A stretch of 64,000 nt of DNA from NCBI GenBank assembly GCA_035546095.1, contig DASZXB010000017.1:24-64023 (forward strand). Reading direction: 5' to 3'. Both the position numbers and the translations under genes were made by a program. The notes under the pieces were generated by a model that did not search any database, was not told the origin of the DNA, and saw only the letters and a list, made by a program, of their open reading frames with translations. This DNA is from Verrucomicrobiia bacterium. Lineage in GTDB: Bacteria; Verrucomicrobiota; Verrucomicrobiia; Limisphaerales; UBA11358. Within the stretch, counting starts at the first letter, position 1; each line of letters starts with the position of its first letter. Below, piece after piece: positions 2,952 to 52,632 of the stretch.

Positions 2952-3085
2952 AAATTTGTGAACGACAAATTTGTTGTCGTGGAGCAACGTTCGGAACATA
3001 AATTTGTCAGCCGACATTCTTTTAGCAAAATTTTGTGGACAAATTTTTTCGTCAGGAACAAAGTCGAATTTGTGAAAGGCAAAAT

Positions 3086-3343
3086 ATGCAAATTCCAACG
3101 TCACCAAGATTATTGAAAATTGCTCTATTTAGTCTAGTGCCAGCAGAGTATTTGAGCATGTTGTTTTCGCGATTGAGTCCAAATATTTACGGTGATGTTC
3201 CTCTTACTTGTGCCATTTTGATTCCGACAGCCGCGTTGGTCAGTTTGCTTTCATGGCCTACTCATCGGGTGGTTGCTATGCTTGGTTTATTGCCATCCTT
3301 TTTGTTGTTCTTTGCTTATACACTACCGACCTTACGAAGTTAA
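3086..3343 (+). CDS. hypothetical small membrane protein
   Basis: ORF in an AT-richer gap with two or three hydrophobic segments and no recognisable motif. The start is uncertain (GTG 3035 or ATG 3086). Confidence 0.3.
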   Translation: MQIPTSPRLLKIALFSLVPAEYLSMLFSRLSPNIYGDVPLTCAILIPTAALVSLLSWPTHRVVAMLGLLPSFLLFFAYTLPTLRS

Positions 3344-4780: not shown

Positions 4781-5679
4781 ATGTTTTTCAGATGCGCGAT
4801 TCCGGTTTTGACGGCTTCGACGGGCAACACGGGACTCAATTCAAAAACCTTGATGTGCTCCGGCTTGACGAACGGTTTGAGCGCGGCGAAATCAATCATA
4901 CCGGCGCCGGGCGGGCAATGGTCTTGCGCGGGGAATTGCACGTCGTGAATGTGAAATCCGGCCAGACGCGGCGCGAGCGGCGCGAGAAATTCGCGATAGC
5001 GGATGAAGCCGAGATTGTCCTTGATTTGCGCGTGGCCGCAATCGTGCCAGTAGCCGACGTTCGGCGAGGAAAATTCGCACAGGAAATTTTCAAAATCGCC
5101 GTCGAGCGGAATTTCCTCGACGGCTTCGCGATTTTCGCAGCCGAGTTTGAGTCCGCGTTTTTCGGCTTCGGGCAAAATCCGGCGCAGCGTTTCTTTGGTG
5201 CGCGCGAAAAATTTTTCCTTTTTGGCCTCGCGCGATTTCTGCGCTTCAACGAGCAATTTTTCGTATTTCGGCGAATGACGTTCGCCGCGTTCGAGCAGGT
5301 CCTTCAATTTGCCGGTGTAATCCTTCAATTCGATGCTGCCGAGATGCAGCACGATGAGTTGGGCTTTGACGCGCGCGGCAAATTCAATCGTTTTGAGCGT
5401 GTGCTTGAGCGCGAGTTCGCGTTCCAGCGCGTCTTCGGCGGAAAATTCGTAAAGATTGGGCGACGGTTTTTCGACGCCCATCGGCAGCGGACAAAAATTG
5501 TGGACGGTGGAGATTTTGATTTCACCGGCGTCCACGGCGTCGAGGATGCCCGGCACGAGCGCGAGCCGGATGCCGTGGCTCAACTCGGCGTATTCAAAAC
5601 CGAGCGCGCGGATTTCGCGCAACATCGCGCGTCCGTCGGTGTGGCGCTGGGAATTCCAGCAGGTGGAAAATGAATACAT
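4765..5679 (-). CDS. sugar phosphate isomerase/epimerase (xylose isomerase-like TIM barrel) family protein
   Basis: 304-aa ORF whose N-terminus (YSFSTCWNS...GFEYAELSHG) and overall pattern are typical of AP-endonuclease-2/xylose-isomerase-like TIM barrels. Confidence 0.65.
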   Translation of the reverse strand: MYSFSTCWNSQRHTDGRAMLREIRALGFEYAELSHGIRLALVPGILDAVDAGEIKISTVHNFCPLPMGVEKPSPNLYEFSAEDALERELALKHTLKTIEFAARVKAQLIVLHLGSIELKDYTGKLKDLLERGERHSPKYEKLLVEAQKSREAKKEKFFARTKETLRRILPEAEKRGLKLGCENREAVEEIPLDGDFENFLCEFSSPNVGYWHDCGHAQIKDNLGFIRYREFLAPLAPRLAGFHIHDVQFPAQDHCPPGAGMIDFAALKPFVKPEHIKVFELSPVLPVEAVKTGIAHLKNIWGEK

Positions 5680-5685
5680 GGATTT

Positions 5686-5774
5686 CGTTGAAGCGTTAAA
5701 TCGTCACATCGTGAATCGTTGAATCGCAAAAACGAAGAATCGTTAAACCGCCGCACTGATGCAACGATTTAACG
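5686..5774. repeat. intergenic hairpin element (cgttgaagcg / cgttaaatcg family)
   Basis: 10-bp perfect inverted repeat cgttaaatcg (5694-5703) / cgatttaacg (5765-5774). The 10-mer cgttgaagcg at 5686 recurs at 30535 and as its complement at 30583. Confidence 0.7.
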
Positions 5775-5799
5775 ATTTCATCCTGCGATGAATTTCAAA

Positions 5800-5997
5800 T
5801 CACAAATCGGCGTAACGCGCCGCGAGCATCGCGGAGAAGCGCGCGACTTTTTGTTTGCGACGGCGGCGTTCGCTCGGCTTTTCAAAATGCCGGTGACTGC
5901 GCACGGTTTTGAGCGTGCCTTCGCGGTCCACTTTTTTCTTCAAGCGCCGCAACGCACGATCCACCGGCTCGCCTTTTTTCAGTTTAATTTCTGTCAA
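5800..5997 (-). CDS. rpsU: 30S ribosomal protein S21
   Basis: 65-aa basic protein with ...RALRRLKKKVDREG...RRRRKQK, typical of S21. TTG start with an aggaag RBS upstream. Confidence 0.9.
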   Translation of the reverse strand: MTEIKLKKGEPVDRALRRLKKKVDREGTLKTVRSHRHFEKPSERRRRKQKVARFSAMLAARYADL

Positions 5998-6195
5998 CGC
6001 AACTCACTTCCTTTCCCGTGCGGGACGAAGCCCGCAAAATAAATGAGCGCGGAGCATAGATTTTTGGCGGCGGAAGTCAATTTCAAATCTCAATTTTAAT
6101 TGACAGAATAATCTGCCGGGCAGAAAGTCAAAAACTATGAGACTGGATAGGTCACAAAACGTGCCGTCTAACCACTGTTAGGCGACTTTGCCATT

Positions 6196-6534
6196 ATGCG
6201 TATTTTTTCATACTTGCTCTTCCTGGTTAGCGTTTTAATGTTCGCGAGCGCAGGTTATGATGAACATCGCGGCGTTACTCATATTCGAGTTGGGAGAAGC
6301 CTTCCCGAAGTTATTACAAAGACAAGTAACCCCGAAGATTTTCACAACGCGATGGTATATCATTGGTTTTACGCATTCATGGTTTTGGTTGCCGGAATCG
6401 TTGCTTACATGATTGATAGGGGGCTAGAAAAGACTGACCCATTTTCGCCTGATTTCGCCGGGAACAAAGCTTTAGATGATTGGGGTGACACAATGAAGAA
6501 GGAAGAAGAACAGCGCAAGCACCCAAAACCATGA
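6196..6534 (+). CDS. hypothetical membrane protein
   Basis: 112-aa ORF in an AT-richer segment with two hydrophobic helices and no recognisable family. Confidence 0.4.
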   Translation: MRIFSYLLFLVSVLMFASAGYDEHRGVTHIRVGRSLPEVITKTSNPEDFHNAMVYHWFYAFMVLVAGIVAYMIDRGLEKTDPFSPDFAGNKALDDWGDTMKKEEEQRKHPKP

Positions 6535-6642
6535 TTTTAGAATTTTAATCGAGTCACCTAACACCTAGACAGGCTGCAAAATTTTCTTCACGCTCTTCGT
6601 CCGGTTCTTGCTTTCGTTGAATCTCAAATTTATCCTGTCGCA

Positions 6643-7677
6643 ATGATTAAAAGGAGCGCAAAGAAATCCGCCGACCCGGAATTGACCAAACAAATTCAGG
6701 AACTCATCCAATCGCGCGGCGGCGGCTACAACGAAACCGAAGTCGCCGACATCATCGAGAACGCGCTGAAATTGCTGACTGACGTGAAGGATACCGGCGA
6801 CGTGCGCGTGATTCAAACGGCGGTGCGCGAATTGCGTTATTCGTTCCGGCTCTTCGCGCCGTATGCGGGCAAACGCAAGGTGACGATTTTCGGTTCGGCG
6901 CGGACAAAACCCGAATTGCCGGAATATCAGCAGGCGGTTGAATTCGGGCGAAAAATCGTCAAAGCCGGATTCATGGTCATTACCGGCGCGGGGCCGGGCA
7001 TCATGCAGGCCGGTCACGAAGGTGCGGGACCGGAAAACAGTTTCGGCGTCAACATCCGCCTGCCGTGGGAGCAAAGCGCCAATCCCGTCATCGCCGAAGA
7101 CAAAAAATTAATCACGTTCAAATACTTTTTCACGCGTAAATTGATTTTCATCCGGCATTCGGATGCGATTGTTTTATTCCCCGGCGGCTTCGGCACGCTG
7201 GACGAAGGTTACGAAGCCATTACGCTAATGCAAACCGGCAAGAGCCAGCTCATGCCGCTGCTGCTCATCGAGCGTCCCGGCGGTGATTACTGGCACACGT
7301 GGAATAAAAATGTGCGCGAACAATTGCTGCGCAACCAACTCATTTCGCCCGACGACCTGAATCTGTATCACATCACCGACAGCACGGATGAAGCCGTGAA
7401 AATCATCACGCGCTTTTACCGGAATTTTCATTCCACGCGTTTCGTGAAAGATTTGCTCGTCATCCGGCTGAAAAACACGCCGACCGAATCCGCACTGGCC
7501 GCGATGAACGAAGATTTTGCCGACATCATCACCGCCGGAAAAATTCAAACCATCAAACCGACGCCCGATGAAATCGAGGACAACGACAATTTGAACTTGT
7601 CGCGCATCGCCTTCAATTTCAACCGCCGTGATTACGGGCGTTTGCGGCAGTTGATTGACGTGTTGAACGGCTTGTGA
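6643..7677 (+). CDS. LOG-family (TIGR00730) nucleotide 5'-monophosphate nucleosidase-like protein, long PpnN-like form
   Basis: VTIFGSAR...ITGAGPGIMQA and PGGFGTLDE motifs of the LOG/lysine-decarboxylase-like family, plus a C-terminal extension. Confidence 0.8.
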   Translation: MIKRSAKKSADPELTKQIQELIQSRGGGYNETEVADIIENALKLLTDVKDTGDVRVIQTAVRELRYSFRLFAPYAGKRKVTIFGSARTKPELPEYQQAVEFGRKIVKAGFMVITGAGPGIMQAGHEGAGPENSFGVNIRLPWEQSANPVIAEDKKLITFKYFFTRKLIFIRHSDAIVLFPGGFGTLDEGYEAITLMQTGKSQLMPLLLIERPGGDYWHTWNKNVREQLLRNQLISPDDLNLYHITDSTDEAVKIITRFYRNFHSTRFVKDLLVIRLKNTPTESALAAMNEDFADIITAGKIQTIKPTPDEIEDNDNLNLSRIAFNFNRRDYGRLRQLIDVLNGL

Positions 7678-7789
7678 TTTGGAAATTTCGATTCAAATTT
7701 GCGATGGACGAAAACTGAAATGCGAAATACAGTAAAAAATCATAAAACGAGATAGACCTTAAACTACGGCCAAATATCTGTTAGGTGTC

Positions 7790-8104
7790 ATGCTAATTAT
7801 GACGCACTCCGATTTGTCAAAACTAAATGTCAAAGAGCGCATTATATATTCTTGCGTCATTATCCTGTGGGGCGTTGCCTGCTTTGGCAGCACTTTGGCA
7901 GGCGGCTTAATCGTATCATTCTTGTTGGGTTTAGTGATTGGGTTGCATCTATTGCCAGATGGTAATTGGGTCATTCTCACTTCCACGATTGTCAGTTGTA
8001 TCATCATGGCTGCATGGTGCATTGCAGACCATCGCCGAGACTTTATGCGACGCAGTGCGTTATCAGTTGTGGGCAGATTGAAGAAAGAACAAAATGACAC
8101 CTGA
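7790..8104 (+). CDS. hypothetical membrane protein
   Basis: 104-aa ORF with three hydrophobic helices in an AT-rich gap. No family recognised. Confidence 0.35.
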   Translation: MLIMTHSDLSKLNVKERIIYSCVIILWGVACFGSTLAGGLIVSFLLGLVIGLHLLPDGNWVILTSTIVSCIIMAAWCIADHRRDFMRRSALSVVGRLKKEQNDT

Positions 8105-8179
8105 TACCGCGCTGGAACCATAAACCACAAATTCCCTGCGTGCTCGACACCTTCCTTTCCCATTGCTAGTGTTTTTCAC

Positions 8180-9631
8180 ATGAATCACTTTGCTTTGCTC
8201 AAATGGTCGGGGAAATTTTCTTTTTCAATCCTGCTTTTTACCTTCGCTTTATCATTCGCGCAACTCGTGACAGCGCAGACACAGCCGGTTACGGTTTCTA
8301 TTTCAGACGAAAACAATGGCAAAGAATTGTCGCCACAATTCCTCGGTTTGAGTTTTGAATCGTCCGCGCTGATTCCCAAAGACGGTCACTATTATTTCGC
8401 GCCGCAAGACACGGTGATGGTCAACGCCTTCAAAACGCTCGGCATCAAAAGTCTGCGCGTCGGCGCGAACGCCGTGGACGACCCGCGCATTCCAGTGCCC
8501 GACACCAATGACATTGACCATTTGTTTGATTTCGCGCGCGCGGCGGGCGTAAAAGTCATTTATTCCTTCCGTCTGAAAAATGGCGACCCGATGAATTCCG
8601 CGCGGTTGGCCAGTTACATCGCCGCACACGACACCGACGCGCTCGATTGTTTTTCCATCGGCAACGAACCAAACTTTTATCTCAAAACATTCGACGCTTA
8701 TTTCGCGGAATGGAAGCCGCACTTCGACGCCATTTTGAAAGTTGTGCCGGACGCGCAATTTGACGGCGCGAGCGCCACCGGCCCTTACGCGCTCGGTTTG
8801 GCCAAAGCCGTTTTTGCCACCGGCCATCTGGCGATGGCGAGCGACCATTATTATTTTCTCGGTTCTGGTCGCGCGGGTGAAAAAGACCCTGCCGCCAATC
8901 GCGTCCGTTTTCTTTCCGACCGGCTTCACGGCGTTTATCAACGCGCTTACAACGAGACCGGCGCGAAACTCGCGGCGGAAGGCGTGCCTTATCGCATTGA
9001 CGAATTGAACAGTTGCTACAACGGTGGCGCGCACGGTTCGAGCGACACTTACGTTTCCGCGTTGTGGGCGCTGGACTGCATTCATTGGTGGGCGGCGCAT
9101 CACATTTTGGGCATGAACTTTCACACCGGCGAATCCGTTGGACGCGACGGTGGTTTCGGCGCGGCGAATTACGCGGCATTCGTGCATCTTCCAGCAAACC
9201 AAGGACTCGAAATGCGTCCGCAATCTTACGGCTATCTCGCTTTCAGCCAAAGTGCGCACGGCCAATCACTGCCGGTGAAAATCAATGCGAACCCGAAATT
9301 TGATTTCGACGCCTACGCCTATCGCGACCACGACAATTCCATTTACGTGACGTTCATCAACAAAAGTTTCGGCACGAACGCGCAACCGGCAAAAGTTTCA
9401 TTGCAACTGCCCGCGAACGTCAGCGCGCAAAGTTATCAGCGCATGGATTTGGCGCAAAAAGACAATGACATGGCCGCTCGAACCGGACTCACGCTCGGCG
9501 GCGCGCCGATTGACACGCAAGGAAATTGGAACGGCCAATGGCAACCAATTGCCGGAACAGACTCGGCGGACATAACCGTTGAAGTCGCGCCGCTTTCCGC
9601 CGCCATTTTGCATTTTGCGGCAATGAAATGA
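8180..9631 (+). CDS. secreted glycoside-hydrolase-like protein (clan GH-A TIM-barrel type)
   Basis: Signal peptide, then an LGLSFE...LRVGANAVD N-terminal barrel pattern and an IGNEPNFY motif (the NEP acid/base motif of clan GH-A). The exact GH family cannot be assigned by eye. Confidence 0.6.
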   Translation: MNHFALLKWSGKFSFSILLFTFALSFAQLVTAQTQPVTVSISDENNGKELSPQFLGLSFESSALIPKDGHYYFAPQDTVMVNAFKTLGIKSLRVGANAVDDPRIPVPDTNDIDHLFDFARAAGVKVIYSFRLKNGDPMNSARLASYIAAHDTDALDCFSIGNEPNFYLKTFDAYFAEWKPHFDAILKVVPDAQFDGASATGPYALGLAKAVFATGHLAMASDHYYFLGSGRAGEKDPAANRVRFLSDRLHGVYQRAYNETGAKLAAEGVPYRIDELNSCYNGGAHGSSDTYVSALWALDCIHWWAAHHILGMNFHTGESVGRDGGFGAANYAAFVHLPANQGLEMRPQSYGYLAFSQSAHGQSLPVKINANPKFDFDAYAYRDHDNSIYVTFINKSFGTNAQPAKVSLQLPANVSAQSYQRMDLAQKDNDMAARTGLTLGGAPIDTQGNWNGQWQPIAGTDSADITVEVAPLSAAILHFAAMK

Positions 9632-9652
9632 TTCAATGTAAGCTGCATCATC

Positions 9653-9886
9653 ATGCCCATAATTTTTCAAAAGAACGGATTTAAGTTTTTCTTTTATAGC
9701 AACGAACATCGCCCGATTCACGTTCATGTTCGCTATGGCGGCGGTGAAGCTGTGTTTGATATTGAAGGTGGAATTGCTTTGCGCGAATCAAAGGGACTTA
9801 AACTCAACGATTTGAGCAAGGCTGAAAAACTTGCGGAACAAAATAAAAAGCTGATAATTGAGAAGTGGCATGAACACCTTGACTGA
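9653..9886 (+). CDS. DUF4160 domain protein
   Basis: MPIIFQKNGFKFFFYSNEHRPIHVHVRYGGGEAVF matches the DUF4160 N-terminal pattern (MP...F.F..NEH.P.H.H). Confidence 0.75.
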   Translation: MPIIFQKNGFKFFFYSNEHRPIHVHVRYGGGEAVFDIEGGIALRESKGLKLNDLSKAEKLAEQNKKLIIEKWHEHLD

Positions 9887-10124
9887 CACTGCGGTTGCCG
9901 CCGTTCACGAAAGCGGATTCATCATCGTGCGCATGGAAAGCGGCGAGGAAATCCGTTTTCCCGTCACGCAAAATCCGCGCCTCGCGCGCGGCACACACCG
10001 GCAGCTAAATCACATCGAAATTTCTCCGTTCGGCCTGCACTGGCCGGAACTCGATGAAGATTTGTCTTTTCGCGGCTTGCTTGAAGGTGACTATGGACAA
10101 TTCCAGAAACCATCAAAAAGTTGA
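9858..10124 (+). CDS. DUF2442 domain protein
   Basis: 88 aa with the C-terminal pattern IEISPFGLHWPELDEDLSFRGLL typical of DUF2442. It overlaps the DUF4160 gene by 29 nt. Confidence 0.7.
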   Translation: MRSGMNTLTDTAVAAVHESGFIIVRMESGEEIRFPVTQNPRLARGTHRQLNHIEISPFGLHWPELDEDLSFRGLLEGDYGQFQKPSKS

Positions 10125-10329
10125 ACGCATAAAAAATGTTCTTGCGATTGGTTTTGGAATTTTGCTGATTCTTTCCATCTTGGCTTGGGTTGTTGGCGTG
10201 CTAACGATGGTTGTCGTTCCGTTGTTCGGCGGAATTCGGGCAGATAAAATCGGAGCAATCGGAATAACTGTTGCGGGATTCGGTGAACTTTCCGCTTACT
10301 TTTTTGGCTGGTTCTTGCGAAAAAAGTAG
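10093..10329 (+). CDS. hypothetical two-TM small protein
   Basis: The ORF continues from the DUF2442 gene region and has two strongly hydrophobic helices. The start at ATG 10093 is a guess. Confidence 0.3.
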   Translation: MDNSRNHQKVERIKNVLAIGFGILLILSILAWVVGVLTMVVVPLFGGIRADKIGAIGITVAGFGELSAYFFGWFLRKK

Positions 10330-10384
10330 TTTTCAAATTCCTTGTGCGCTCGACAGCTTTCATTTCCGTTGCTAGCGTTTTGAA

Positions 10385-11338
10385 ATGAATTTCTTGGTCA
10401 CCGGCGGCGCGGGTTTTATCGGCTCGCACGTTTGCGAACGGCTTCTGCGTGACGGCCACGGTGTTTGGACGTTTGACGATTTGAATGATTTTTACGACCC
10501 GCAGCTCAAACGCAAAAATATCCGTGACATCCAATCACTGGCCAAACCGTTTGAATTTATTCAAGGCGATTTGTGTGATGCGAACGCGCTGAACGAAATT
10601 TTTTCTTCCGTAAAATTCGATCAAGTTATCCATCTCGCGGCGCGCGCGGGCGTACGGCCAAGCTTGGAACAACCGGCGCTTTACCAGCGTGTGAACGTGG
10701 AAGGTACGGTCAATTTGCTCGAAGCCGCGCGCAAATCCGGCGTGAAAAAAATCATTCTTGCGTCGTCGTCGTCGGTTTACGGTGTGAACGCCAAAGTGCC
10801 GTTTTCGGAAAGTGACCCGATTTTTTCCGCCATTTCGCCTTACGCGGCGAGCAAACTGGCATGCGAGGCGCTCGGTCACGTTTATCATCACGTTCACAAA
10901 ATGGACGTGACGATGCTGCGGTTGTTCACAGTTTATGGCCCGCGCCAGCGACCGGATTTGGCTATTCGCAAATTCGCCGCGCTCATCACCAGCGGCAAAC
11001 CAATTCCGGTTTTCGGCGACGGCGGCACGGCACGCGATTACACTTACGTTTCCGACACGGTGGACGGAATTGTCGCCGCGACGAAAAAAGAATTCGGCTA
11101 CGACATCTTCAATCTCGGCGAATCGCAGACGGTGAAATTGAGCCGTTTGATTGAATTGCTCGAAACCGCGCTGGGCAAAAAAGCTGTGATTGACCGAAAA
11201 CCGGAACAGCCCGGCGACGTGCCCATCACGTTCGCGGACGTTTCCAAAGCGCGCGAAAAACTCGGTTACGACCCGAAAATCAAAATCGAGCAGGGAATAA
11301 AATCATTTGCAGATTGGTTTCAAAAAAGCCAAAGTTAG
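10385..11338 (+). CDS. NAD-dependent sugar-nucleotide epimerase (UDP-glucuronate 4-epimerase-like SDR)
   Basis: TGGAGFIGSH Rossmann motif, YAASK catalytic YxxxK, and FTVYGPRQRPDLA typical of the UDP-GlcA epimerase subgroup. Confidence 0.85.
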   Translation: MNFLVTGGAGFIGSHVCERLLRDGHGVWTFDDLNDFYDPQLKRKNIRDIQSLAKPFEFIQGDLCDANALNEIFSSVKFDQVIHLAARAGVRPSLEQPALYQRVNVEGTVNLLEAARKSGVKKIILASSSSVYGVNAKVPFSESDPIFSAISPYAASKLACEALGHVYHHVHKMDVTMLRLFTVYGPRQRPDLAIRKFAALITSGKPIPVFGDGGTARDYTYVSDTVDGIVAATKKEFGYDIFNLGESQTVKLSRLIELLETALGKKAVIDRKPEQPGDVPITFADVSKAREKLGYDPKIKIEQGIKSFADWFQKSQS

Positions 11339-43623: not shown

Positions 43624-44217
43624 TCAATGATGCGTGATAATGAAGATTGCCACGAACAACACGATGAACAACGTCCAGACAAAAATCATCTTGAAATAAG
43701 GCAGGCGGCCAAGATTCGTCAGCGTGGTGATGGGGCCGAGGTCGAGCGCGCGCGGTGTCATTTGCGAAACCTGAAAATCCGGGCCGGCGCGCAAAAAGGT
43801 TTCGCGCATCGCGCCGACAAATTCTTCAGGCCACGGGCCGGGTCGCAAGAATTGTTCCTGCCATTTGCCGGGCATATCCGCCAGCAACAAAGCAAGGCGT
43901 CCGCGCGTCGAGACATTCGGGGTGGTTCTTTCCGGCGGTGTCTGCAAAACTTCGCTGAACCATTCGTTGACGTAGCGTTCCATTTCTTCGGCGGCGATTT
44001 GCGTGGCGGAATAATTTGGTTCAGCCGGCGCGCGTTGCATCGCGCGTTCAATCACGCGGAGCACAAGCTGGCCAAGTAGGGCTTTGTTGCGGATGCGTAG
44101 CGCGTGAAAATAACTTTCAACTTTCGCGTAGGCAGCGTTCCATTCTTCCACAGGCCGACCGGCAAGTTTCTCGGAAGAAGTGGCTAAAACATCCGCGACG
44201 TTCACGGGGGACTCCAT
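43624..44217 (-). CDS. hypothetical tail-anchored protein encoded between opgG and opgH
   Basis: 197-aa ORF from ATG 44217. It overlaps the opgG stop by 16 nt and ends 3 nt before the opgH ATG. There is one C-terminal TM helix and no recognisable family. Confidence 0.5.
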   Translation of the reverse strand: MESPVNVADVLATSSEKLAGRPVEEWNAAYAKVESYFHALRIRNKALLGQLVLRVIERAMQRAPAEPNYSATQIAAEEMERYVNEWFSEVLQTPPERTTPNVSTRGRLALLLADMPGKWQEQFLRPGPWPEEFVGAMRETFLRAGPDFQVSQMTPRALDLGPITTLTNLGRLPYFKMIFVWTLFIVLFVAIFIITHH

Positions 44218-45770
44218 TGATAAACCCAGGTTTCGCTCACGACATTGGTGCCGCTTTGGAGCGTGCAACGCAAATCCACCGGATTCACGTTGCCGGGATT
44301 GGGTTGCATTTTCAGAATCACGCGCCACGTCCCCAAATCTGTGCAGCGGATGACTTGATTGTCCAAAATGGCCGCGTTGGTGCTGCAATTGGAAATGGCT
44401 ACAGGCGGATTATTTTCAGGAATGGCGTCAAGTTTGGGGCCGTCGAAATCAACGATGATTTGCCGGCAATCTTTGCAACTTGGATCAAGCCCCAAACGCG
44501 TGGACACAACGCGATTCTCTGAAAGTTTCCGGTCGGCTTCGCCCGATTGCCAGTAAAGCGTGTAGCTGAACCGAAACGGTTGCAGCGGCGCGGGTTTATT
44601 TTTCGGATCCCAAAACGCGACGATATTATCCAATCCCTCGTAGTGCGTGCTTAATTCAACCAAATGCAAATCGCCGTCGCCCCAATTACCGTTCGGCTCG
44701 ACCCAAACACTGGGTTTCAGTTGCGGAGCATCAAAATTATCCTGATATGCGGCAAATGAACGCTCACGTTGTAACAGTCCAAAACCACGGATGTCCGGCG
44801 CGGAAAAAATCTGGTGACGCATCACTACTGGATTGTTGAGCGGACGCCAAAAAATTTCGCCGTTGTTCATGTGGACAAGCAATCCGTCAGTGTCATGAAC
44901 TTCCGGGCGATAATCATCGAATTTGCGCTCGGTGTTTTTGCCGAACCAGAACATGCTGGTCAACGGCGCGAATCCCAAAGTTTTGATCGCCGCCGCGTTG
45001 GTATTAACGATTTGAATGTCCCACGACCGGCGAAGATACAAAATGGCGGTCACATCGGCGACAGTCGCCTCGCCCGGCCGGATGAGAAATTCATACGCGC
45101 CGGTGCAACTCACGCTGTCGAGAATTGCAAACAGCCGGATTTCGTCATCGTCACGATGCGGTTTGCCCAACCACCAATCGGTGAAGATTGGAAATTCCTC
45201 CGGCCGGTCCGATTCACCGCAATTGATTGCCAGTCCGCGCGCGGATTGCCCGTAACGCTGGTTTTTGGCGACCAACCGGAAATAGCTCGCGCCGAGAAAC
45301 GCGCCCAATTCGTCCAGTTGATTGGTCCTGTTCAACGCATACAAAATGCGAAAGCCGGCATAACCCGTGTTTGCCGGAATCTGATTCTGAATGTGCAAAT
45401 TACCGTAATCAAAAAAATCCTGCACAAAACGGATTGGCTGCGTGTGCGCCAGCATGAACTCATTCATGCGCACCGGTTCCTGATACAAATAACCCGGATG
45501 AAAAAATTCGATGCGAAAGGGAAGATTATCCTCCGTCCACAGCGCCTTGTCGCGGCGAAATCTTATTTGCCGGTATTTGTCGTAATCCAGATTGTCCTGC
45601 TGCAACACCTTCGGCAAATCCGCGCGCGGCGAATGGAACGGCGCGCTCGCCCGCGCCAACGCCAACTGCGACACATAATCCAGATTGATTTCCGTGGATT
45701 CCGTTCCGCCATAAACGGTTCCCGTCAGCGCCGTTACAATAATTAGAACTAAACAACTTCGTCGCCACAT
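44202..45770 (-). CDS. opgG: periplasmic glucan biosynthesis protein
   Basis: Signal peptide plus the MdoG-type pattern (FRIEFFHPGYLY, GASYFR, WWLGKP). I chose the ATG at 45770 rather than the TTG at 45806. Confidence 0.9.
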   Translation of the reverse strand: MWRRSCLVLIIVTALTGTVYGGTESTEINLDYVSQLALARASAPFHSPRADLPKVLQQDNLDYDKYRQIRFRRDKALWTEDNLPFRIEFFHPGYLYQEPVRMNEFMLAHTQPIRFVQDFFDYGNLHIQNQIPANTGYAGFRILYALNRTNQLDELGAFLGASYFRLVAKNQRYGQSARGLAINCGESDRPEEFPIFTDWWLGKPHRDDDEIRLFAILDSVSCTGAYEFLIRPGEATVADVTAILYLRRSWDIQIVNTNAAAIKTLGFAPLTSMFWFGKNTERKFDDYRPEVHDTDGLLVHMNNGEIFWRPLNNPVVMRHQIFSAPDIRGFGLLQRERSFAAYQDNFDAPQLKPSVWVEPNGNWGDGDLHLVELSTHYEGLDNIVAFWDPKNKPAPLQPFRFSYTLYWQSGEADRKLSENRVVSTRLGLDPSCKDCRQIIVDFDGPKLDAIPENNPPVAISNCSTNAAILDNQVIRCTDLGTWRVILKMQPNPGNVNPVDLRCTLQSGTNVVSETWVYQWSPP

Positions 45771-45886
45771 TTGGTAAATGAGAACTAAATTACGCAAAAC
45801 ATGCAAGTGTCGCGCACTTTTATTTGCAATAATTAAATCTCCTTAATTGATTGTTGCGCAATCGTTTCCGCCAAATCCAGAAATGA

Positions 45887-46882
45887 TTATTTTCCGAGCA
45901 AATCCGCGACCATTGCCTTTTCTTCTTTCAATTCATTTTCCGTCGCGGCGATTTTGGTTTTGCTGAATTCGTTGAGCGGAACATTTTGAACGATTTCCCA
46001 TTGCGCGCCGTTGCTGCGAATTGGATAACTGAAAATCAATCCTTTTTCGATGCCGTAATCGCCGGGCGAACAAACGGCGACGCTGAACCAATCGCCGGAT
46101 TTCGTCGGCGTTGTCAAATTGCGAACCGTGTCCACAACGGCATTCGCCGCGCTCGCCGCGCTGGAAAGTCCGCGCGCTTTGATGATCGCAGCGCCGCGTT
46201 GTTGAATCGTCGTGATAAATTCGCCTTTGAGCCATGCTTCGTCCTTGATGACATTGGGAACGGGCTGGCCGGAAATTTTTGCGTTGAAAAAATCAGGATA
46301 CATCGTCGCGCTATGATTTCCCCAAATGGCGAGATTGGAAATTGTCGTGTTGTCCACGTTCGCTTTTTTTGCAAGTTGTGTCACGGCGCGATTTTGATCG
46401 AGCATCGTCATCGCAAAAAAGCGGTCACTCGGAATTCCTTTGGCATTGTTCATCGCAATCAGCGCGTTCGTGTTGCATGGATTGCCGATGACGAGGACGC
46501 GCACGTCGCTCGCGGCATTTTTGGCAATGGCATTGCCCTGGCCGGTGAAAATTTTGCCGTTGATGCCAAGTAAATCTTTGCGTTCCATGCCGGTTTTGCG
46601 CGGAACTGCGCCGACGAGCAACGCCCAGTTCACGCCGCGAAAACCTTCATCCAGATTTCCGGTGGGAACAATTCCTTTGAGCAGCGGAAACGCGCAGTCG
46701 TCCAATTCCATACAAACCCCACCGAGCGCGGCCTGTGCTTTTTCATCGGGAATTTCGATGAGATGCAAAGTGACGGGCTGTTCCGGCCCGAACATCGCGC
46801 CACTGGCGATGCGAAAGAGAAGGGAATATCCGATTTGACCGGCCGCGCCGGTGACGGCCACGCGAATGGGTGCTTTGCTCAT
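45887..46882 (-). CDS. mdh: malate dehydrogenase
   Basis: [17 protein letters not shown]-terminus and IWGNHS motif of the LDH-like/cytosolic-type MDH family. Confidence 0.95.
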
Positions 46883-47020
46883 AAATTCAGACGGCCAGTA
46901 TAATTTACACGCGCCATTTCACAAGCATGGAACATTTTTCAAAATTTGTCTTGGCAAAAAAAAAATTCAGCGTAAAACAGAACCGTTCTTTGAAACGGCA
47001 AAAGAAATTTTGCCACTGAT

Positions 47021-47154
47021 GCAATCAAATGTCAGGGAATCCGGTGAAAATCCGGAGCGGTTGCGCCACTGTAACGGCTACAAATTCCAAAGCCACCGGC
47101 AACGGGAAGGCGGAATGAGGTTGGAAGCCGAAGTCAGGATACCGGTTTGATTGT
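47021..47154 (+). promoter_or_regulatory. cobalamin (B12) riboswitch aptamer
   Basis: Contains AGGGAAUCCGGUGAAAAUCCGGAGCGGUUGCGCCACUGUAACGG, GCCACCGG...GGGAAGGC and AGUCAGGAUACCGG, matching the conserved cobalamin-riboswitch core including the B12 box. A 7-bp P1 helix aatcaaa (47023-47029) / tttgatt (47146-47152) closes it. Confidence 0.9.
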
Positions 47155-47240
47155 GCTCGTCGCTGCGAAAGCAGCAACTTCTCCGCAAAGAGAAGGATGA
47201 GGCCAGCCGGTCAAACTGTTTTTGGCCGGATTCCTGATTT

Positions 47241-47285
47241 GCCTTCATTTCTTGATTTGTGGAAGTGAAGGCGTTTTTGTTTTTT
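47241..47285 (+). terminator. intrinsic terminator (probable riboswitch expression platform)
   Basis: Stem gccttcatttct / ggaagtgaaggc (12 bp with two G-U pairs), an 8-nt loop, followed by gTTTTTgTTTTTT. Confidence 0.6.
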
Positions 47286-47360
47286 GACACGAATTGCACG
47301 AATTTTCACGAATGTTGAAAAATCACGCGACCATTCGTGTTAATTCGTGAAATTCGTGTC
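47286..47360. repeat. 29-nt-arm palindromic element (triple CACGAAT motif) in the operon leader
   Basis: gacacgaattgcacgaattttcacgaatg (47286-47314) and cattcgtgttaattcgtgaaattcgtgtc (47332-47360) are near-perfect inverted complements. Confidence 0.85.
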
Positions 47361-47440
47361 TTCATTTCCCTCTGGTCTCTCAACCAAAAAACCGTTCGCG
47401 TAAAAAAATTTTGCGCGGATAAAAATTGAAAGACTGGAAA

Positions 47441-49618
47441 ATGAAAAAAGTTCGTTTCGCGCTGGCAATTGCCGGCCTGTTTCTTGTTTGCAAATCGGCG
47501 TCGGCCATTTCACTGGATGACATTCAACTCTGGACTGGCTCCGGCACCAATCGCGCCGCACTCGTCATTGAATGGAGCGTGCCGGAATCTTTGACCAATT
47601 CTTCCGTGCCAGTTCCGATCGCGGACAAAACGCTTGTTTGGGGCTATCGGTTCAATGGCGCAGCCACGGGAACGCAAATGTTGCAAGCAATTTTGGCGGC
47701 AGACCCAAAACTTTATGTCGCTGAAGAATTCGGCGATTTCATCGTCGCCGCCGGTTACAATCTCAACGGCAACGGCAACATTGGCATCACCGACGGCACA
47801 ACCACCAATTTTTTTGCTGGTGGCCTTTTGTCTGACCCAACGGTAAATGTGGATTCCGTGCAGGCGATTAACTCCGGCGATTTATTTTGGAGCGGATTGT
47901 ATGGCCCGAATTGGGAGACGTGGCGTGAGACAAATGAACTCGGTGGCTTTTACACATCACCGAATCGCGGCACGAATGCATATTGGACGACGACAGACAC
48001 GGAATACTTCGGCACCGGTTTTCACGGTCAATGGCAATATTCAGGAGGCATAGACGATGCGCCACTTGCCGATGGTTCATGGATTGGTTTAAGCGTCGCC
48101 GCCGGTGAATTTGAACCAGACGCCAACGCGCCTTACAATGCGTACAAGCACGCGCCGGTTTCGCCTGATGGCACTTATGTCGCCTACGTTGCCAACACCA
48201 ACGATTTCGCCGTTCAAGTCCTCAGCTACACCAATCTTTACTACTTGAATGCTCTCGGCCAAACATTCTACTCCAACGCGCTCGCAGTGCTGGGCCAGCC
48301 GACGTTGAAATTCAAAAATGGCGCCAGTTTCTTTGGCGATGGAACAATCCACCGCGTCAAAATTGTCGAGCCGGCATTTTGGACCGACCCCACAGGAACG
48401 AATGACGTCATCACCAGAATAAACGTCGGCGGCCAAATTACCGTCAACATGGGACGCAAAATTTACCATAATCCAAACAATCCTTATGGCATTGATTTCA
48501 ATGTCTTTGGCAATTCATTTTATCAGGCAACGGGAGGGGCAGATCCGAAAACCGGCTTGATCAGTGATTCGACGGATGAAGGTAATGTTACGATCAATGG
48601 AAGTGCCGGGACTTACGGTCATACCACTATTGTTTCCGTCAGTCAGGACGGCACGAATTGGCTCACCTATCCTTACGTACCAGTTATTGTCCCGGACAAC
48701 GCCTACCGCTGGGACGACACCAATCATTGCTGGACGGATGAGCAAATGAATGAAACCAAACCGCTCAACCCATCGCTCAATTTTCCGGCTGGCACGACGG
48801 TTGCCAACGCGTTGGATCAATTTGTCGGCGCATATGGCGGCACAGGTTATAGCTTGCAAACATTCAACCTTCCGTGGATTCAATACATCCGCATCTGGGC
48901 GGGAGCGACCACTAACGATGCGAATTCTTCCGACTACACAGTCATTGATTCGATTGGCGCGGTCAATCCGGTCACCGTTGGCGACGCACTTTCCATCACG
49001 CCGGGCAATTTGGTTTCAGGCATCACTAACCTGAATTTTCAAAACCCGGCTGATTTGTGCCAGACTTTGATTTCGCTTAATTTTGATTCCGTCAGCACGA
49101 ATGCAAAAATCAGCACCGTCAGCCTGCATGAATTTTCTTCGTTCGCGCCGGTCATCGGCAACGTCTCCAGCGCGTATCAACTTCAAACTCGTTCGCTTGC
49201 GGATACAAATGCCGTGACACTTCAAGCCGACGTTGGCCTGCGCGTCGGTGACAATTATTCCGGCAACGGAAATGATTTGCGCGTTTTTCAATGGTGTGGC
49301 ACGAATTGGATTTCACAGCCGTTCACGTTTAATTCAATGAACAATGAAGTTGTCGTCGCGGGCGTGACGAATTTTTCCGCGTTTGTCGTGTCGCAAATCG
49401 TTCCGCCAAGTTTGGGCATTCAAACTTTGACAAATGGTTTCGCGTTTCAATTCGCGCCCGTTGCAAACGCTCAAAACATTTTGGAACGCTCGACCGACCT
49501 CGTGAATTGGACGCCAATTGCCACAAACACGCCGGCTGATTCGCAATCCATCACGTTGCAGGACACGAATGTGCCGTCAGACAAGGCATTTTATCGCGTG
49601 CTTTTGAACGTTCCGTGA
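47441..49618 (+). CDS. large secreted hypothetical protein, first gene of the B12-riboswitch operon
   Basis: 725 aa from ATG 47441 with a signal peptide ([22 protein letters not shown]). It has a C-terminal ...[11 protein letters not shown]...FYRVLLNVP module. No enzymatic motif recognised. Confidence 0.7.
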
Positions 49619-49680
49619 AATGCCGCGCAAAAAATTCGCAATGGAAATTCGCCGGCGCGTTCGCACGATGCGGACGCGCC

Positions 49681-50412
49681 GTGCGAAATTCCGCGTTCAC
49701 GTTGATTGAATTGCTCGTCGTCATTGCCATCATCGCGATTTTGGCGGCGATGCTTTTGCCCGCATTGGCTCAGGCCAAAGCAAGGGCGAAGAGCCTTCAA
49801 TGTTTGAGTAATTTGCGACAAATGGTCATCGCCGCGCACGTTTATGTGGATGACAACGCCGATTTCTATCCCATTGCCTACTGGGGTGACGAGGACTCGG
49901 CCAATTCTTACTGCTGGGATTTGAGCGTGATTTATGACGACAACGGCAACGCCACCGTCCAGCCAGGCATTTTATGGGAAAGTCAGGGCAACGCCCAAAT
50001 CCAGCAATGCCCATCATTTGACGGCAGCGCCAACTGGGCCGACAATCCTTACACCGGCTATAATTATAACACCAGCTATATCGGCCATGGCCTGGATGAA
50101 GCGATTCAACTACCTGCGAAAACTGCGGACGTTCATCATCCGGCCAAAACGGTGATTTTTGGCGACGGCCAATATGCGGGGGGCGCGAATAAATTTATGC
50201 GCGCTCCCTTTCCGAATCCCGGCGACGTGTATTTCGACGGGCGCAATGCCGGCACGCAAGGATTTCGCCATCGAAATCGCAGCAACGCTGCTTTTTGCGA
50301 TGGTCACGCCGAATCGTTGCGCGATTGCTACACGAATAATTCTGAAAATTCCCTCGTCGCACCCGGCACTGGATTTCTTTCGGTTAGTAATTCCATGTAT
50401 GACCTTGAATAA
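49681..50412 (+). CDS. prepilin-type N-terminal domain / H-X9-DG (DUF1559) pseudopilin-like protein
   Basis: (M)[28 protein letters not shown] methylation-type leader from GTG 49681, with an alternative GTG at 49615 overlapping the upstream stop. The C-terminal [12 protein letters not shown] is an exact H-X9-DG motif. Confidence 0.8.
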
Positions 50413-50418
50413 GACATT

Positions 50419-50943
50419 ATGAACATACCAAGATTTTTATTTTTGACCGGAATAATTTTTGTCGCAGCTTTGTCGCGATTGATTCCGCATCCGCCGAATT
50501 TCAGTCCCATCGCCGCGCTCGCCTTGTTCGGCGGCGCGCAATTTTCCTGCAAATGGATGGCTTTTATCGTGCCGTTGGCCGCCATGTTTTTGAGCGATTT
50601 GATTTTGGGATTGCACGCGTTGATTCCAGTCATTTATGGCTGCTTTGCGTTGATCGTCTGCCTCGGTTTTTGGCTGCGCCGAAATCAAAATATCTGCCGC
50701 ATCGGCGGCGCGGCAATAATTGGCGCGATTTTGTTTTTCGTCGTGACCAATTTCGGGGTTTGGGCAATCGGCTCATACTATCCGAAGACCGGAAACGGAC
50801 TACTCACTTGTTACATCGAAGCTATTCCATTTTTCTGGAACACGTTGACCAGCGATTTATTTTATTCCGCAATCCTTTTCGGCGCATTGCGCGCGGCGGA
50901 ATGGCGCTGGCCGATTATGCGACCGGCTTTGGCCGCAAACTGA
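50419..50943 (+). CDS. small polytopic membrane protein (resembles DUF6580 putative transporter family)
   Basis: 174 aa with about 5-6 TM helices. The N-terminal SRLIPHPPNFSPIAALALFGGA motif is, as I recall, characteristic of DUF6580-type putative vitamin transporters. This is unverified. Confidence 0.65.
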   Translation: MNIPRFLFLTGIIFVAALSRLIPHPPNFSPIAALALFGGAQFSCKWMAFIVPLAAMFLSDLILGLHALIPVIYGCFALIVCLGFWLRRNQNICRIGGAAIIGAILFFVVTNFGVWAIGSYYPKTGNGLLTCYIEAIPFFWNTLTSDLFYSAILFGALRAAEWRWPIMRPALAAN

Positions 50944-50944
50944 A

Positions 50945-51328
50945 ATGGAGTCCTCATCGGCAGAGCAGATTGATGCCGGACGATGCCCGCTCTGTGGCAA
51001 TCCGAACCATTGCCAGCTTTGCACCGTCGCCGCCTACAAAGGTTCGTGCTGGTGCGCAAAAGTGGAAATTCCCGATGCGCTGCTCGCGCAAGTGCCGCCC
51101 GATTTGCAGAGCAAATCCTGCATCTGCCGCGATTGCGTCACGGAATTTCATCGCGCAAAAAATTCCAGCGCACCGCCAAAAATTTTGCCGGGCGATTTTT
51201 ATTTCGACAACGGCTTGATGGTTTTCACGGCGGAATATCACTTGCGACGCGGTTATTGTTGCGGCAGTAGCTGTCGCCATTGTCCGTTTGAAGAAAAATC
51301 CGTCGCGCTGGTATCGGCGACCCAATGA
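50945..51328 (+). CDS. cysteine-rich CWC-type / DUF5522-like fusion protein
   Basis: N-terminal CPLCGNPNHCQLC...CWC...CICRDC, and C-terminal FTAEYHLRRGYCCGSSCRHCPF. Confidence 0.65.
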   Translation: MESSSAEQIDAGRCPLCGNPNHCQLCTVAAYKGSCWCAKVEIPDALLAQVPPDLQSKSCICRDCVTEFHRAKNSSAPPKILPGDFYFDNGLMVFTAEYHLRRGYCCGSSCRHCPFEEKSVALVSATQ

Positions 51329-52089
51329 GCGCGATTCCGCAACGCATCGTTTGTCTCTCTGCCGAAGTCGCCGATTGGTTTTGGCGGCTCGGCGCGTGGG
51401 AAAATGTCGCGGGTGTCACGGTATTTTTTGAACAAGCGCCCGATGCGCCGCCCAAACCGCGCGTCAGCGGATTCAGTTCCGCCAATTTCGAGCAAATCGA
51501 GAAATTAAATCCCGATTTGGTCGTCACGTTTTCCGACGTGCAAACACAATTGGCAACCAAATTGGTTCAACGCGGTTTTTCGGTTTTTTCCACCAATCAA
51601 CGCACGTTGGAAGAAATTGAAAACACGCTCGGATTGCTCGCGCGCATGGTAAATCGCGGACACGATGGCGAAAGATTGCTGGATGAATTTCGCACGCGAC
51701 TGGCACCGGTGAAAAACGTTTCGCGCCGTCCGCGCATTTATTTTGAGGAATGGAATGAGCCGCTGATTTCCGGCATTGGCTGGGTGAGCGAATTGATTGA
51801 ACGCGCCGGCGGCGAAGACATTTTCCCCGAATTGAAATCAAAACGTGCGGCGTTGGAGCGTGTTGTTTCGCCCGGACAAGTTTGCACGGCCAATCCTGAA
51901 ATCATTTTTGCCTCGTGGTGCGGCAAACCGGTGAACATTTCTGAAATCGTCTCGCGCCTCGGTTGGGAAAAATTATTCGCCGTTCGCCATCAACGCATCT
52001 ATGAAATTTCCGGCGACGACATTTTGCAGCCCGGCTTTCGATTGATTTATGGTTTTGAATTGATGAAAAAAGTGATTGGACATTGTTGA
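51325..52089 (+). CDS. cobalamin-binding protein (BtuF-like, periplasmic-binding-protein type 2 fold) without signal peptide
   Basis: RIVCLSAEVADW...LNPDLVVTFSD...YFEEWNEPLISGIGWVSELIERAGG pattern typical of BtuF-like B12-binding proteins. The protein begins MSAIPQRIVCL with no hydrophobic leader. Confidence 0.7.
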   Translation: MSAIPQRIVCLSAEVADWFWRLGAWENVAGVTVFFEQAPDAPPKPRVSGFSSANFEQIEKLNPDLVVTFSDVQTQLATKLVQRGFSVFSTNQRTLEEIENTLGLLARMVNRGHDGERLLDEFRTRLAPVKNVSRRPRIYFEEWNEPLISGIGWVSELIERAGGEDIFPELKSKRAALERVVSPGQVCTANPEIIFASWCGKPVNISEIVSRLGWEKLFAVRHQRIYEISGDDILQPGFRLIYGFELMKKVIGHC

Positions 52090-52104: not shown

Positions 52105-52632
52105 ATGTCGCAAATTATGTTGTCGCGAACGGTCATCATTGGCAACAGCGGTTCGGGCAAAAGTTATTTGGCGCAATCGCTGTCGGCAATTCATTCAATT
52201 CCCGTTGTCCATCTCGACGGAATTTTTTGGATGCCCGGCGGATTCAACGAGAAGAGGCCAGCAAACGAAGTGAGAATTGAAATAGAACGGAAACGAAAAG
52301 ACGATTCGTGGATTGTCGAAGGTGTTTTTGGTGAACTGGCTGAATTGTTTTTGCCGCGAGCGGATTGTCTTATATTTTTAGATTTGGATTGGACTGCCTG
52401 CTGGTCGGCACTTGTGGCGCGCGGTTCTGAAAGTTCAAAGCAATTGCCAGCGGCCAATGCAGAGGGAAATTTTAAGAAATTGCTCCTTTGGGCGGAACAA
52501 TATTGGACTAGGACAAATTCATGCTCTCAATCAAACCACCTTCGGCTGTTTTCCAATTTTACCGGCGTCAAATTCAGATTTATCCGCCGCTCTGAAATTG
52601 ACGAATTTCTCAGGCAACAAGAAAGAAGTTAA
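52105..52632 (+). CDS. P-loop NTPase / adenylate-kinase-like small kinase
   Basis: IIGNSGSGKSYLAQSL Walker A in a 175-aa protein. Its size and pattern are typical of AAA-type small-molecule or nucleotide kinases. Confidence 0.65.
   Translation: MSQIMLSRTVIIGNSGSGKSYLAQSLSAIHSIPVVHLDGIFWMPGGFNEKRPANEVRIEIERKRKDDSWIVEGVFGELAELFLPRADCLIFLDLDWTACWSALVARGSESSKQLPAANAEGNFKKLLLWAEQYWTRTNSCSQSNHLRLFSNFTGVKFRFIRRSEIDEFLRQQERS

Follow-up and report, generated by a model that had tools for sequence, protein, structure and literature searches.

What part can a pilin-like protein play when its gene is controlled by vitamin B12? The question is raised by a 64,000-nucleotide (nt) stretch of DNA from a Verrucomicrobiia bacterium (GenBank assembly GCA_035546095.1, contig DASZXB010000017.1, positions 24 to 64,023 of the forward strand), hereafter termed the window. 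In it, a cobalamin riboswitch precedes a gene for a large secreted protein and a gene for a prepilin-type protein of the H-X9-DG/DUF1559 kind. Proteins of this kind can exceed a hundred per genome in Planctomycetota and Verrucomicrobiota, and no function is assigned to the DUF1559 family in the literature we searched. An initial annotation of the window had proposed that the pair forms a surface or pilus-associated device for corrinoid capture, functionally analogous but unrelated to the accessory lipoproteins BtuG and BtuH of Bacteroides. Here, we report that riboswitch, large protein and pilin-like gene form a conserved trio, and that profile comparisons identify one domain of the large protein as a remote homologue of BtuH's B12-binding domain. 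On this evidence, we consider it probable that the genes belong to a B12-repressed corrinoid-acquisition operon, of which the two leading genes are a conserved functional unit composed of a surface corrinoid binder and a pilin-like partner.

Since B12 exchange shapes microbial communities, an uptake route without the usual outer-membrane transporter gene would be of ecological interest. In function, the proposed system would resemble the accessory surface binders of the extracellular cobamide relay of Bacteroides, which comprises BtuJ, BtuH, BtuG, BtuK and BtuB (PMC13616437, PMC13398666), with BtuJ representing the B12-binding family DUF4465 (PMC13398666).

A gene pair behind a cobalamin riboswitch

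The riboswitch aptamer (RF00174) lies at 47010-47164 on the forward strand and was the sole element that Rfam models matched anywhere in the window, with 66.3 bits (gathering score, 31.5) over the full model (positions 1-189). It is nearly identical to the aptamers 5' of homologous genes in all eight loci scanned for this feature. A terminator-like hairpin on the same strand (47240-47283; a 13-bp stem with 5 GC pairs, the hairpin itself at 47240-47273, then TTTTTGTTTT) follows about 75 nt 3' of the aptamer and about 160 nt 5' of the first start codon. It is likely to be the expected expression platform, which would act by transcription attenuation. The segment between this hairpin and the start codon contains a long near-palindrome with many CACGAAT/ATTCGTG units (47284-47365).

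The first open reading frame after this leader (47441-49618, forward strand, ATG at 47441) encodes the large protein of 725 amino acids (aa). Its Sec-type signal peptide (aa 1-21; 47441-47503, forward strand) has an AxA site, with cleavage predicted between ASA and IS to leave a mature N-terminus of ISLDD. Among 34 homologues A22 is invariant and the cysteine of the signal peptide is not conserved; the large protein is therefore not a lipoprotein. The pilin-like gene follows at 49615-50412 on the same strand, its GTG start overlapping the stop codon of the large-protein gene (GTGA), and the same overlap occurs in loci L001, L002, L006 and L010 of the set described below. The Rfam scan and the translations confirm that, as first annotated, a 725-aa signal-peptide protein and an H-X9-DG prepilin are the leading genes after a B12 riboswitch, and every N-terminal string that had been quoted for the large protein is present in its translation.

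Conservation of riboswitch, large protein and pilin-like gene

A scan with one genome per species yielded 78 loci. H-X9-DG orthologues were placed by tblastn, and riboswitches were located with Rfam and, for the near-identical verrucomicrobial aptamers, with an nhmmer profile; riboswitches were counted within 700 nt upstream wherever a locus included more than 400 nt of DNA on that side, and H-X9-DG adjacency among the loci assessable for it. Verrucomicrobial genes for the full-length form of the large protein are preceded by a riboswitch in 28 of 28 loci and adjoined by an H-X9-DG gene in 27 of 29. Both values are 14 of 14 for a short form of the protein found in the same phylum, and the other verrucomicrobial loci give 3/3 and 1/3, respectively. 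This brings the Verrucomicrobiota to a riboswitch in 45 of 45 assessable loci and an adjacent H-X9-DG gene in 42 of 46; in one of the four misses (L007, full-length form), the locus boundary cuts off the H-X9-DG gene. Planctomycetota show the same pattern (riboswitch in 13 of 14 loci, with one more distant upstream; H-X9-DG gene adjacent in 15 of 15).

The H-X9-DG orthologue lies directly 3' of the large-protein homologue in nearly all Verrucomicrobiota loci and in Phycisphaerae, Pirellulales, Brocadiaceae and Kiritimatiellae, with the same trio arrangement seen in Kiritimatiellae locus L057 and in L084. In many genomes the two genes are the whole regulated unit, as in L079 and L081, where the riboswitch controls these two alone. 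In a Brocadiaceae locus (L065), the H-X9-DG gene and a gene for a protein with domain B of the large protein (see below) stand consecutively, each with a cobalamin riboswitch of its own (6109-6274 and 7462-7645). The pairing, found in about 60 genomes, is far from chance. Outside lineages of the Planctomycetes-Verrucomicrobia-Chlamydiae (PVC) type, the pilin-like partner occurs only in Chthonomonas.

Further cobalamin riboswitches in related loci (L001, 9463-13250; L024, 1931-6811) have nrdD-nrdG or nrdA-nrdB under their control, along with a gene resembling dCTP deaminase. Such control of the B12-independent reductases NrdDG and NrdAB is typical of organisms that use and sense B12; it implies that, given B12, these Verrucomicrobiota prefer a B12-dependent reductase.

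Domain architecture of the large protein and homology to BtuH

Searches with the whole large protein gave no sequence match in Pfam, NCBIfam or the PDB, and its several hundred close homologues are all unnamed. Comparison across loci resolved the protein into three modules: A (aa 22-240), B (aa 255-510) and C (aa 520-725). An AlphaFold2 model of aa 22-525, computed from a 123-sequence alignment mixing full-length, A-only and B-only proteins, reached a mean predicted local distance difference test (pLDDT) score of 90.4 and a predicted template modelling (pTM) score of 0.76. It consists of two beta-sandwich-type domains with a low-confidence linker around aa 242-251. Foldseek returned weak matches of this two-domain model to jelly rolls of the discoidin and carbohydrate-binding module 32 (CBM32) type (E about 3e-3), the matched domain not being distinguishable. 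A propeller of the seven-bladed BtuG/BtuK type is not part of the architecture, as no propeller family was matched in the large protein by Pfam search; as separate genes, propellers were seen solely in some loci of Phycisphaerae and Empedobacter.

Domain B (48203-48970, forward strand) carries the motifs NDPNNPYG.DF.VFGN.F, VSVSQDG..W, TKP.NP and Y.G..GGTG.DL, and its ten-residue blocks have pLDDT values mostly of 85-98, two dipping to about 80. In Phycisphaerae it also occurs alone, as a PEP-CTERM protein of 270-350 aa. A profile of 63 domain-B sequences (A6) searched against the PDB had 7biz_A as its sole meaningful chain, matched over the whole domain at E 4.5e-8. This entry, 7BIZ, is the crystal structure of Bacteroides thetaiotaomicron BtuH2 with cyanocobalamin bound (PMC8941943; PMC13616437). 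Profile A6 contained rows from Bacteroidota and Bacillota (L075-L078), and because true BtuH sequences among them were suspected of driving the match, the profile was rebuilt without those rows (A7). With A7, 7BIZ was still the sole match, weakened to E 0.032. The Bacteroidales protein from L077 is a true BtuH homologue, with E values of 2.7e-45 for 7BIZ and 1.4e-43 for 8BLW, and hhalign of A7 against it gave a probability of 98.5% (E 2e-15) over 100 columns, from an FA..VV.Y motif to VSVSQDG..W. These comparisons identify domain B as a remote homologue of the BtuH B12-binding domain, an assignment that is sound for its N-terminal half only.

To relate domain B to the binding site, we mapped the residues of BtuH2, in which chain index plus 100 gives the published numbering, the offset being fixed by Gln333/Phe334, Asn399/Phe401 and Glu406. 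The published contacts to the corrin and nucleotide loop include Gln333, Asn399, Phe401, His476, Tyr510, Trp511 and Trp577 (PMC8941943, PMC13616437). The near-invariant FGN.F motif of domain B (DFNVFGNSF in the window) takes in the positions of Asn399 and Phe401, and that of Phe334 holds an aromatic residue; Trp577 lies outside the aligned region. Taken with the genomic context, homology makes it a reasonable inference that domain B binds B12.

These results divide the initial proposal. The conserved, riboswitch-controlled pair stands, and extracellular corrinoid capture is the best reading of its context. The assertion of unrelatedness to BtuG and BtuH must be withdrawn for BtuH, given the hhalign result and 7BIZ as the only PDB match of domain B.

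Domain C (48998-49615, forward strand) ends in a conserved FYR tail, and its last approximately 70 aa are retained in the verrucomicrobial short form, a protein of 324 aa that combines domain A with this tail. A full-length AlphaFold2 model from the 34 close homologues was poor (pLDDT 60.6) and was used solely for the all-beta character of domain C (pLDDT about 60-90 in this part), which is consistent with beta-sandwich, immunoglobulin (Ig)-like domains. A second copy of domain C was not found elsewhere in the window.

Domain A, an unassigned extracellular module

Domain A (47504-48160, forward strand; motif NGSW.G.S) was modelled with pLDDT values of 85-97 in blocks of ten residues. It has no family in the Pfam library searched, and a profile search retrieved 1,820 clusters at 50% identity (E up to 1e-3). 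Proteins of 700-2,150 aa contain up to ten copies of it, and it occurs alone, with PEP-CTERM or type IX secretion system (T9SS) tails, in Desulfobacterota, Bacteroidota and others. Precomputed annotation of one domain-A protein includes a faint match to PF28005 ('SCO2322').

The evidence that ties domain A to B12 biology is its genomic context. The verrucomicrobial short form is paired with the pilin-like gene and has the riboswitch upstream in each of its 14 loci, and a domain-A protein of Bacteroidaceae (L073) begins 55 nt 3' of a cobalamin riboswitch scoring 106.7 bits. Domain A thus represents a large unnamed extracellular family whose context suggests a part in corrinoid acquisition.

A different idea about this region came from the initial annotation, which noted a weak resemblance of the N-terminal approximately 150 aa to transcobalamin-like/DUF4430 B12-binding domains; on this reading, the protein would contain such a domain and be unrelated to BtuG and BtuH. 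In its favour is a likeness of motifs seen by eye: the W..W and DGSWDGWSF segments of domain A resemble W.y.vNG...dGD.v.w.y, the pattern of DUF4430. The resemblance failed every test run. DUF4430 (PF14478) gave no match in the window protein and 10 distant homologues at E up to 0.1, nor among 22 domain-A sequences even at E up to 10. The domain A profile had only chance-level matches in the PDB, although transcobalamin, intrinsic factor and haptocorrin are deposited there, and none of these three was among the 50 Foldseek matches listed for the two-domain model. As the large protein is moreover related to BtuH through domain B, we regard this idea as highly improbable.

Two other relationships were considered for domain A and rejected. 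A link to DUF4465 (BtuJ, PF14717) found no Pfam match and an hhalign probability of only 0.15% against a DUF4465 protein, and a comparison of domain A with domain B matched PEP-CTERM tails only.

The pilin-like partner

The pilin-like protein has an N-terminal methylation motif (N_methyl, PF07963, E 1.8e-7; TIGR02532, 28 bits against a cutoff of 16.3), and in the alignment to PDB pilins, F28 of its N-terminal helix falls on residue 1 of the mature proteins. Starting instead at an in-frame GTG (49681), the protein would have a short leader of the classical kind, MRNSA before FTLIELL. Inspected by eye, the H-X9-DG motif is matched exactly, with nine residues separating H from DG, and the corresponding profiles narrowly miss: PF07596 (DUF1559) scores 22 bits against a cutoff of 23.3, over profile positions 3-52 only, and TIGR04294 (H-X9-DG) scores 18.6 bits against 19. 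By motif and architecture, we count the protein as a DUF1559/H-X9-DG member that falls slightly short of both curated cut-offs. Its globular part had no relative in a sequence search of the PDB, and no second H-X9-DG paralogue was found in the window. The 51 orthologues adjoining A or B genes conserve FTLIELLVV, two cysteines (in C..NLRQ and CP), Y.YN and FRH....N..F.DGH, features that we take to be those of DUF1559 proteins in general. The residue at position -1, alanine in the window protein, is alanine in 27 and glycine in 24 of them.

What suggests a role for this protein is its obligatory synteny with the large-protein gene, the translational coupling and its own riboswitch in L065. Two roles seem most likely. 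In the one we prefer, the protein would be a relay or anchor, taking over the ligand from the binder or holding the binder in place; in the other, it would be a cargo-specific pseudopilin needed for the binder's export. In the latter case, the large protein would bind the corrinoid, the H-X9-DG protein, as part of a machine like the type II secretion system (T2SS), would serve only to export the large protein or dock it at the cell surface and never handle B12, and the many DUF1559 paralogues of PVC bacteria would be adaptors for different cargoes. The prepilin leader and helix are typical of T2SS and type IV pilus subunits, the pilin-like gene always lies beside and translationally coupled to the gene of a Sec-exported protein, and the large protein of the window, lacking a PEP-CTERM or T9SS tail, needs another export route. 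Yet the A and B proteins of Phycisphaerae and of L084 carry PEP-CTERM tails, and thus a signal for exosortase sorting, and the pilin-like gene is kept all the same. A riboswitch belonging to the pilin-like gene itself in L065 also fits poorly, and secretion-machine genes were present in none of the loci whose gene content was read. We judge dedicated export by a pseudopilin rather unlikely and prefer the relay or anchor.

Related proteins in other phyla

Free-standing A and B proteins lie behind B12 riboswitches in six phyla, near genes for BtuB, BtuJ/DUF4465 and propellers. The btuB operon of Empedobacter has the order riboswitch, TonB-dependent receptor, DUF5074 protein, PKD_3 protein and a protein in which domain A is fused to a DUF5074 propeller and a T9SS tail. 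In Bacteroidales L077, the riboswitch is followed by DUF6580, the BtuH homologue and a DUF4465 protein, the latter two with T9SS tails. Phycisphaerae place an A+B or B protein behind the riboswitch, followed by a beta-propeller of the PQQ_2 family, which has a tail of the EF-hand or dockerin kind, and the H-X9-DG gene; this propeller may be an analogue of those of BtuG or BtuK. PQQ_2 (BamB-like) propeller genes were observed in L045 (9523-11142), L069 (8642-10426) and L082 (12123-13718). In L084, which carries an Acido-Lenti-1 RNA, the riboswitch precedes several PEP-CTERM proteins, including an A protein, and an N_methyl protein. Homologues of the large protein end in PEP-CTERM, VPDSG-CTERM, T9SS, dockerin or MYXO-CTERM tails, and these recognisable sorting signals indicate surface display. 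The common theme across phyla is secreted, surface-sorted proteins in B12-repressed units.

In Desulfobacterota, a second signal enters. Three loci have cyclic di-GMP (c-di-GMP)-I and cobalamin aptamers in tandem before A or B homologues (L049, 5823-6344; L051, 4102-4532; L086, 2046-2515), and the A and B homologues behind c-di-GMP-I riboswitches in this phylum are PEP-CTERM proteins. The L086 locus, from Desulfosarcina ovata, continues at 2816-10776 with about eleven tandem genes for proteins of 175-244 aa, at least one of them an A-domain protein, interspersed with c-di-GMP-I riboswitches.

These arrangements raise the idea of a surface or adhesion module that responds to B12, the pair not being a ligand binder, through which low B12 would lead to attachment to B12 producers, particles or the biofilm matrix. 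c-di-GMP is a typical sessile signal, and it governs A and B homologues in Desulfobacterota both alone and in tandem with cobalamin. Multiple copies of domain A in giant surface proteins and the carbohydrate-binding jelly rolls among the weak fold matches would suit such a module as well. Against it, domain B is homologous to a domain crystallised with B12, and the family is co-encoded with BtuB, BtuJ/DUF4465, DUF6580 and BtuF-like genes. A gate of the type 'low B12 and high c-di-GMP' is equally expected for scavenging within a biofilm, so that the tandem arrangement fits that purpose just as well. We judge an adhesion module very unlikely and continue with corrinoid acquisition.

Downstream genes and flanking regions

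Four more genes follow the pair on the same strand. The first encodes a polytopic membrane protein of family DUF6580 (50419-50943, forward strand; PF20221, E 8.7e-59). DUF6580 is also the first gene behind the 100.9-bit cobalamin riboswitch of Bacteroidales L077 (315-956), making its product a candidate inner-membrane corrinoid carrier; a sequence search found no PDB relative, and a literature search found no paper naming DUF6580. Next is a cysteine-rich protein with CWC and DUF5522 domains (50945-51328, forward strand; PF14375, E 3.9e-13; PF17653, E 3e-19). The CWC gene recurs behind the pair in many loci and, in the window, overlaps the following gene by 4 nt. This gene encodes a BtuF-like Peripla_BP_2 protein (51325-52089, forward strand; PF01497, E 1.9e-29, with a weak BtuF match) that has no signal peptide and begins with MSAIPQRIVCLS. 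No ATP-binding cassette (ABC) permease or ATPase gene lies near it. The last gene on the strand, for a P-loop NTPase/kinase-like protein (52105-52632, forward strand; weak AAA_18/AAA_33 and PRK08118-like matches), probably belongs to the operon.

On the other side, the divergent neighbours of the riboswitch (44202-46882, reverse strand) encode a malate/lactate dehydrogenase and MdoG (OpgG). A malate/lactate dehydrogenase gene also lies 5' of the riboswitch unit in L079, L080 and L081, where an ABC exporter pair intervenes.

Proposed mechanism

We propose the following mechanism for the operon. At high intracellular cobalamin, the riboswitch would end transcription at the hairpin at 47240-47283, and when cobalamin is scarce, the operon would be transcribed. 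Once exported by the Sec pathway, the large protein would use domains A and B to bind free corrinoids, either in the outer envelope or beyond the cell, with the Ig-like modules of domain C serving as stalk or anchor. The pilin-like protein may be a dedicated partner of this binder, either held in the inner membrane through its pilin helix or assembled into a short pseudopilus, and might tether the binder or receive its ligand. The DUF6580, CWC/DUF5522 and leaderless BtuF-like proteins could then take the corrinoid into and through the cytoplasm.

Several observations weigh against this reading. The alignment to BtuH covers only the N-terminal half of domain B, and the corrin contacts Tyr510, Trp511 and Asp522 of BtuH2 sit in an insertion that domain B lacks. 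The equivalent of His476 is not conserved, and Glu406 falls on the E of EPG.V.VS.DG, which is His in the Verrucomicrobiota clade. Nor was 7BIZ among the 50 Foldseek matches listed for the two-domain model, and for domain A the Pfam, PDB and DUF4465 comparisons gave no tie to any known ligand binder. The large protein of the window has neither a lipobox nor a recognised sorting tail, and its surface exposure is thus not supported by sequence. Pfam search found no TonB-dependent receptor in the window operon. The features of the pilin-like protein are generic for DUF1559, and none is B12-specific. Finally, the association with B12 control has exceptions: in two Desulfobacterota loci (L047, 1-59; L048, 7627-7710), A and B genes follow a c-di-GMP-I riboswitch alone, and in Chthonomonas (L055) the H-X9-DG gene lies directly upstream instead and there is no riboswitch.

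In a bolder extension of the proposal, PVC bacteria would take up nutrients by way of pseudopili whose functional components are H-X9-DG/DUF1559 pilins. A secreted binder specific for one ligand, here the BtuH-like protein with domain A, would hand its cargo to a dedicated pilin, and this pilin would bring the cargo across the envelope in place of the TonB-dependent BtuB and BtuG of Bacteroidota. We consider this general route unlikely; if true, the B12 pair would provide the first assigned ligand in the hugely expanded DUF1559 family.

Comparison with known systems

In the literature searched, we found no paper linking DUF1559 to cobalamin or reporting BtuH in PVC phyla, and neither the domain A fusion nor the constant pairing with a DUF1559 pilin-like protein has been described there. 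The pilin-like protein shares with DUF1559/H-X9-DG proteins (PF07596, TIGR04294; Planctomycetota, Verrucomicrobiota and Lentisphaerota) the methylation motif, C..NLRQ, Y.YN and the FRH-X-N-X-F-DGH end. What sets its subgroup apart is that both the regulator (the B12 riboswitch) and the neighbour (the A or B protein) are defined; in addition, it scores just under the curated cut-offs. Tying one subgroup to a known signal and a defined partner renders the family testable.

Tandem gates of adenosylcobalamin (AdoCbl) and c-di-GMP-I riboswitches were described in Desulfobacca acetoxidans, where the regulated genes were left unexplained (Sherlock et al. 2022, PMC9481103). In the three Desulfobacterota loci, A or B homologues are preceded by a tandem of these two classes, whereas the window has a cobalamin riboswitch alone. 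Our finding suggests what such gates control in Desulfobacterota, in that the regulated genes may be these BtuH-like and A-domain surface proteins.

Like the Btu relay of Bacteroides, the loci described here place several secreted binding modules behind a cobalamin riboswitch, some with propeller partners (PQQ_2 in Phycisphaerae, DUF5074 in Empedobacter) and L077 with DUF4465 beside the B homologue. In contrast to that relay, the window operon contains no TonB-dependent transporter, propeller or DUF4465 protein, its domain A is unrelated to DUF4465, and its constant partner is the pilin-like protein.

Among the closest known systems are the surface B12-binding lipoproteins of B. thetaiotaomicron, BtuH1 (BT1488) and BtuH2 (BT1956; 7BIZ), together with the H-domain of BtuGH (BT1490) (PMC8941943, PMC13616437). 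Domain B is homologous to these and conserves the residues at Asn399 and Phe401; in both systems, exported proteins with Ig-like spacer domains are controlled by a B12 riboswitch and encoded alongside further genes for B12 uptake. Unlike BtuH, the window protein aligns over half a domain, lacks the Tyr510/Trp511 loop, has Glu406 replaced by His, bears no lipoprotein signal and has no btuB or btuG nearby. It is further set apart by its fusion to domain A and by the constant pairing with a pilin-like H-X9-DG gene, which is absent from Bacteroidota loci, and its family occurs in Verrucomicrobiota, Planctomycetota and Kiritimatiellae, where the literature searched reports no BtuH. By virtue of domain B, the large protein can be placed in the BtuH superfamily as a distant member, though not as a typical BtuH, the second half of the domain and the contact residues having diverged. 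Earlier descriptions of the BtuH-type domain were limited to gut Bacteroidota and a few Firmicutes; its range is here extended to soil and water bacteria of the PVC group, Desulfobacterota and others.

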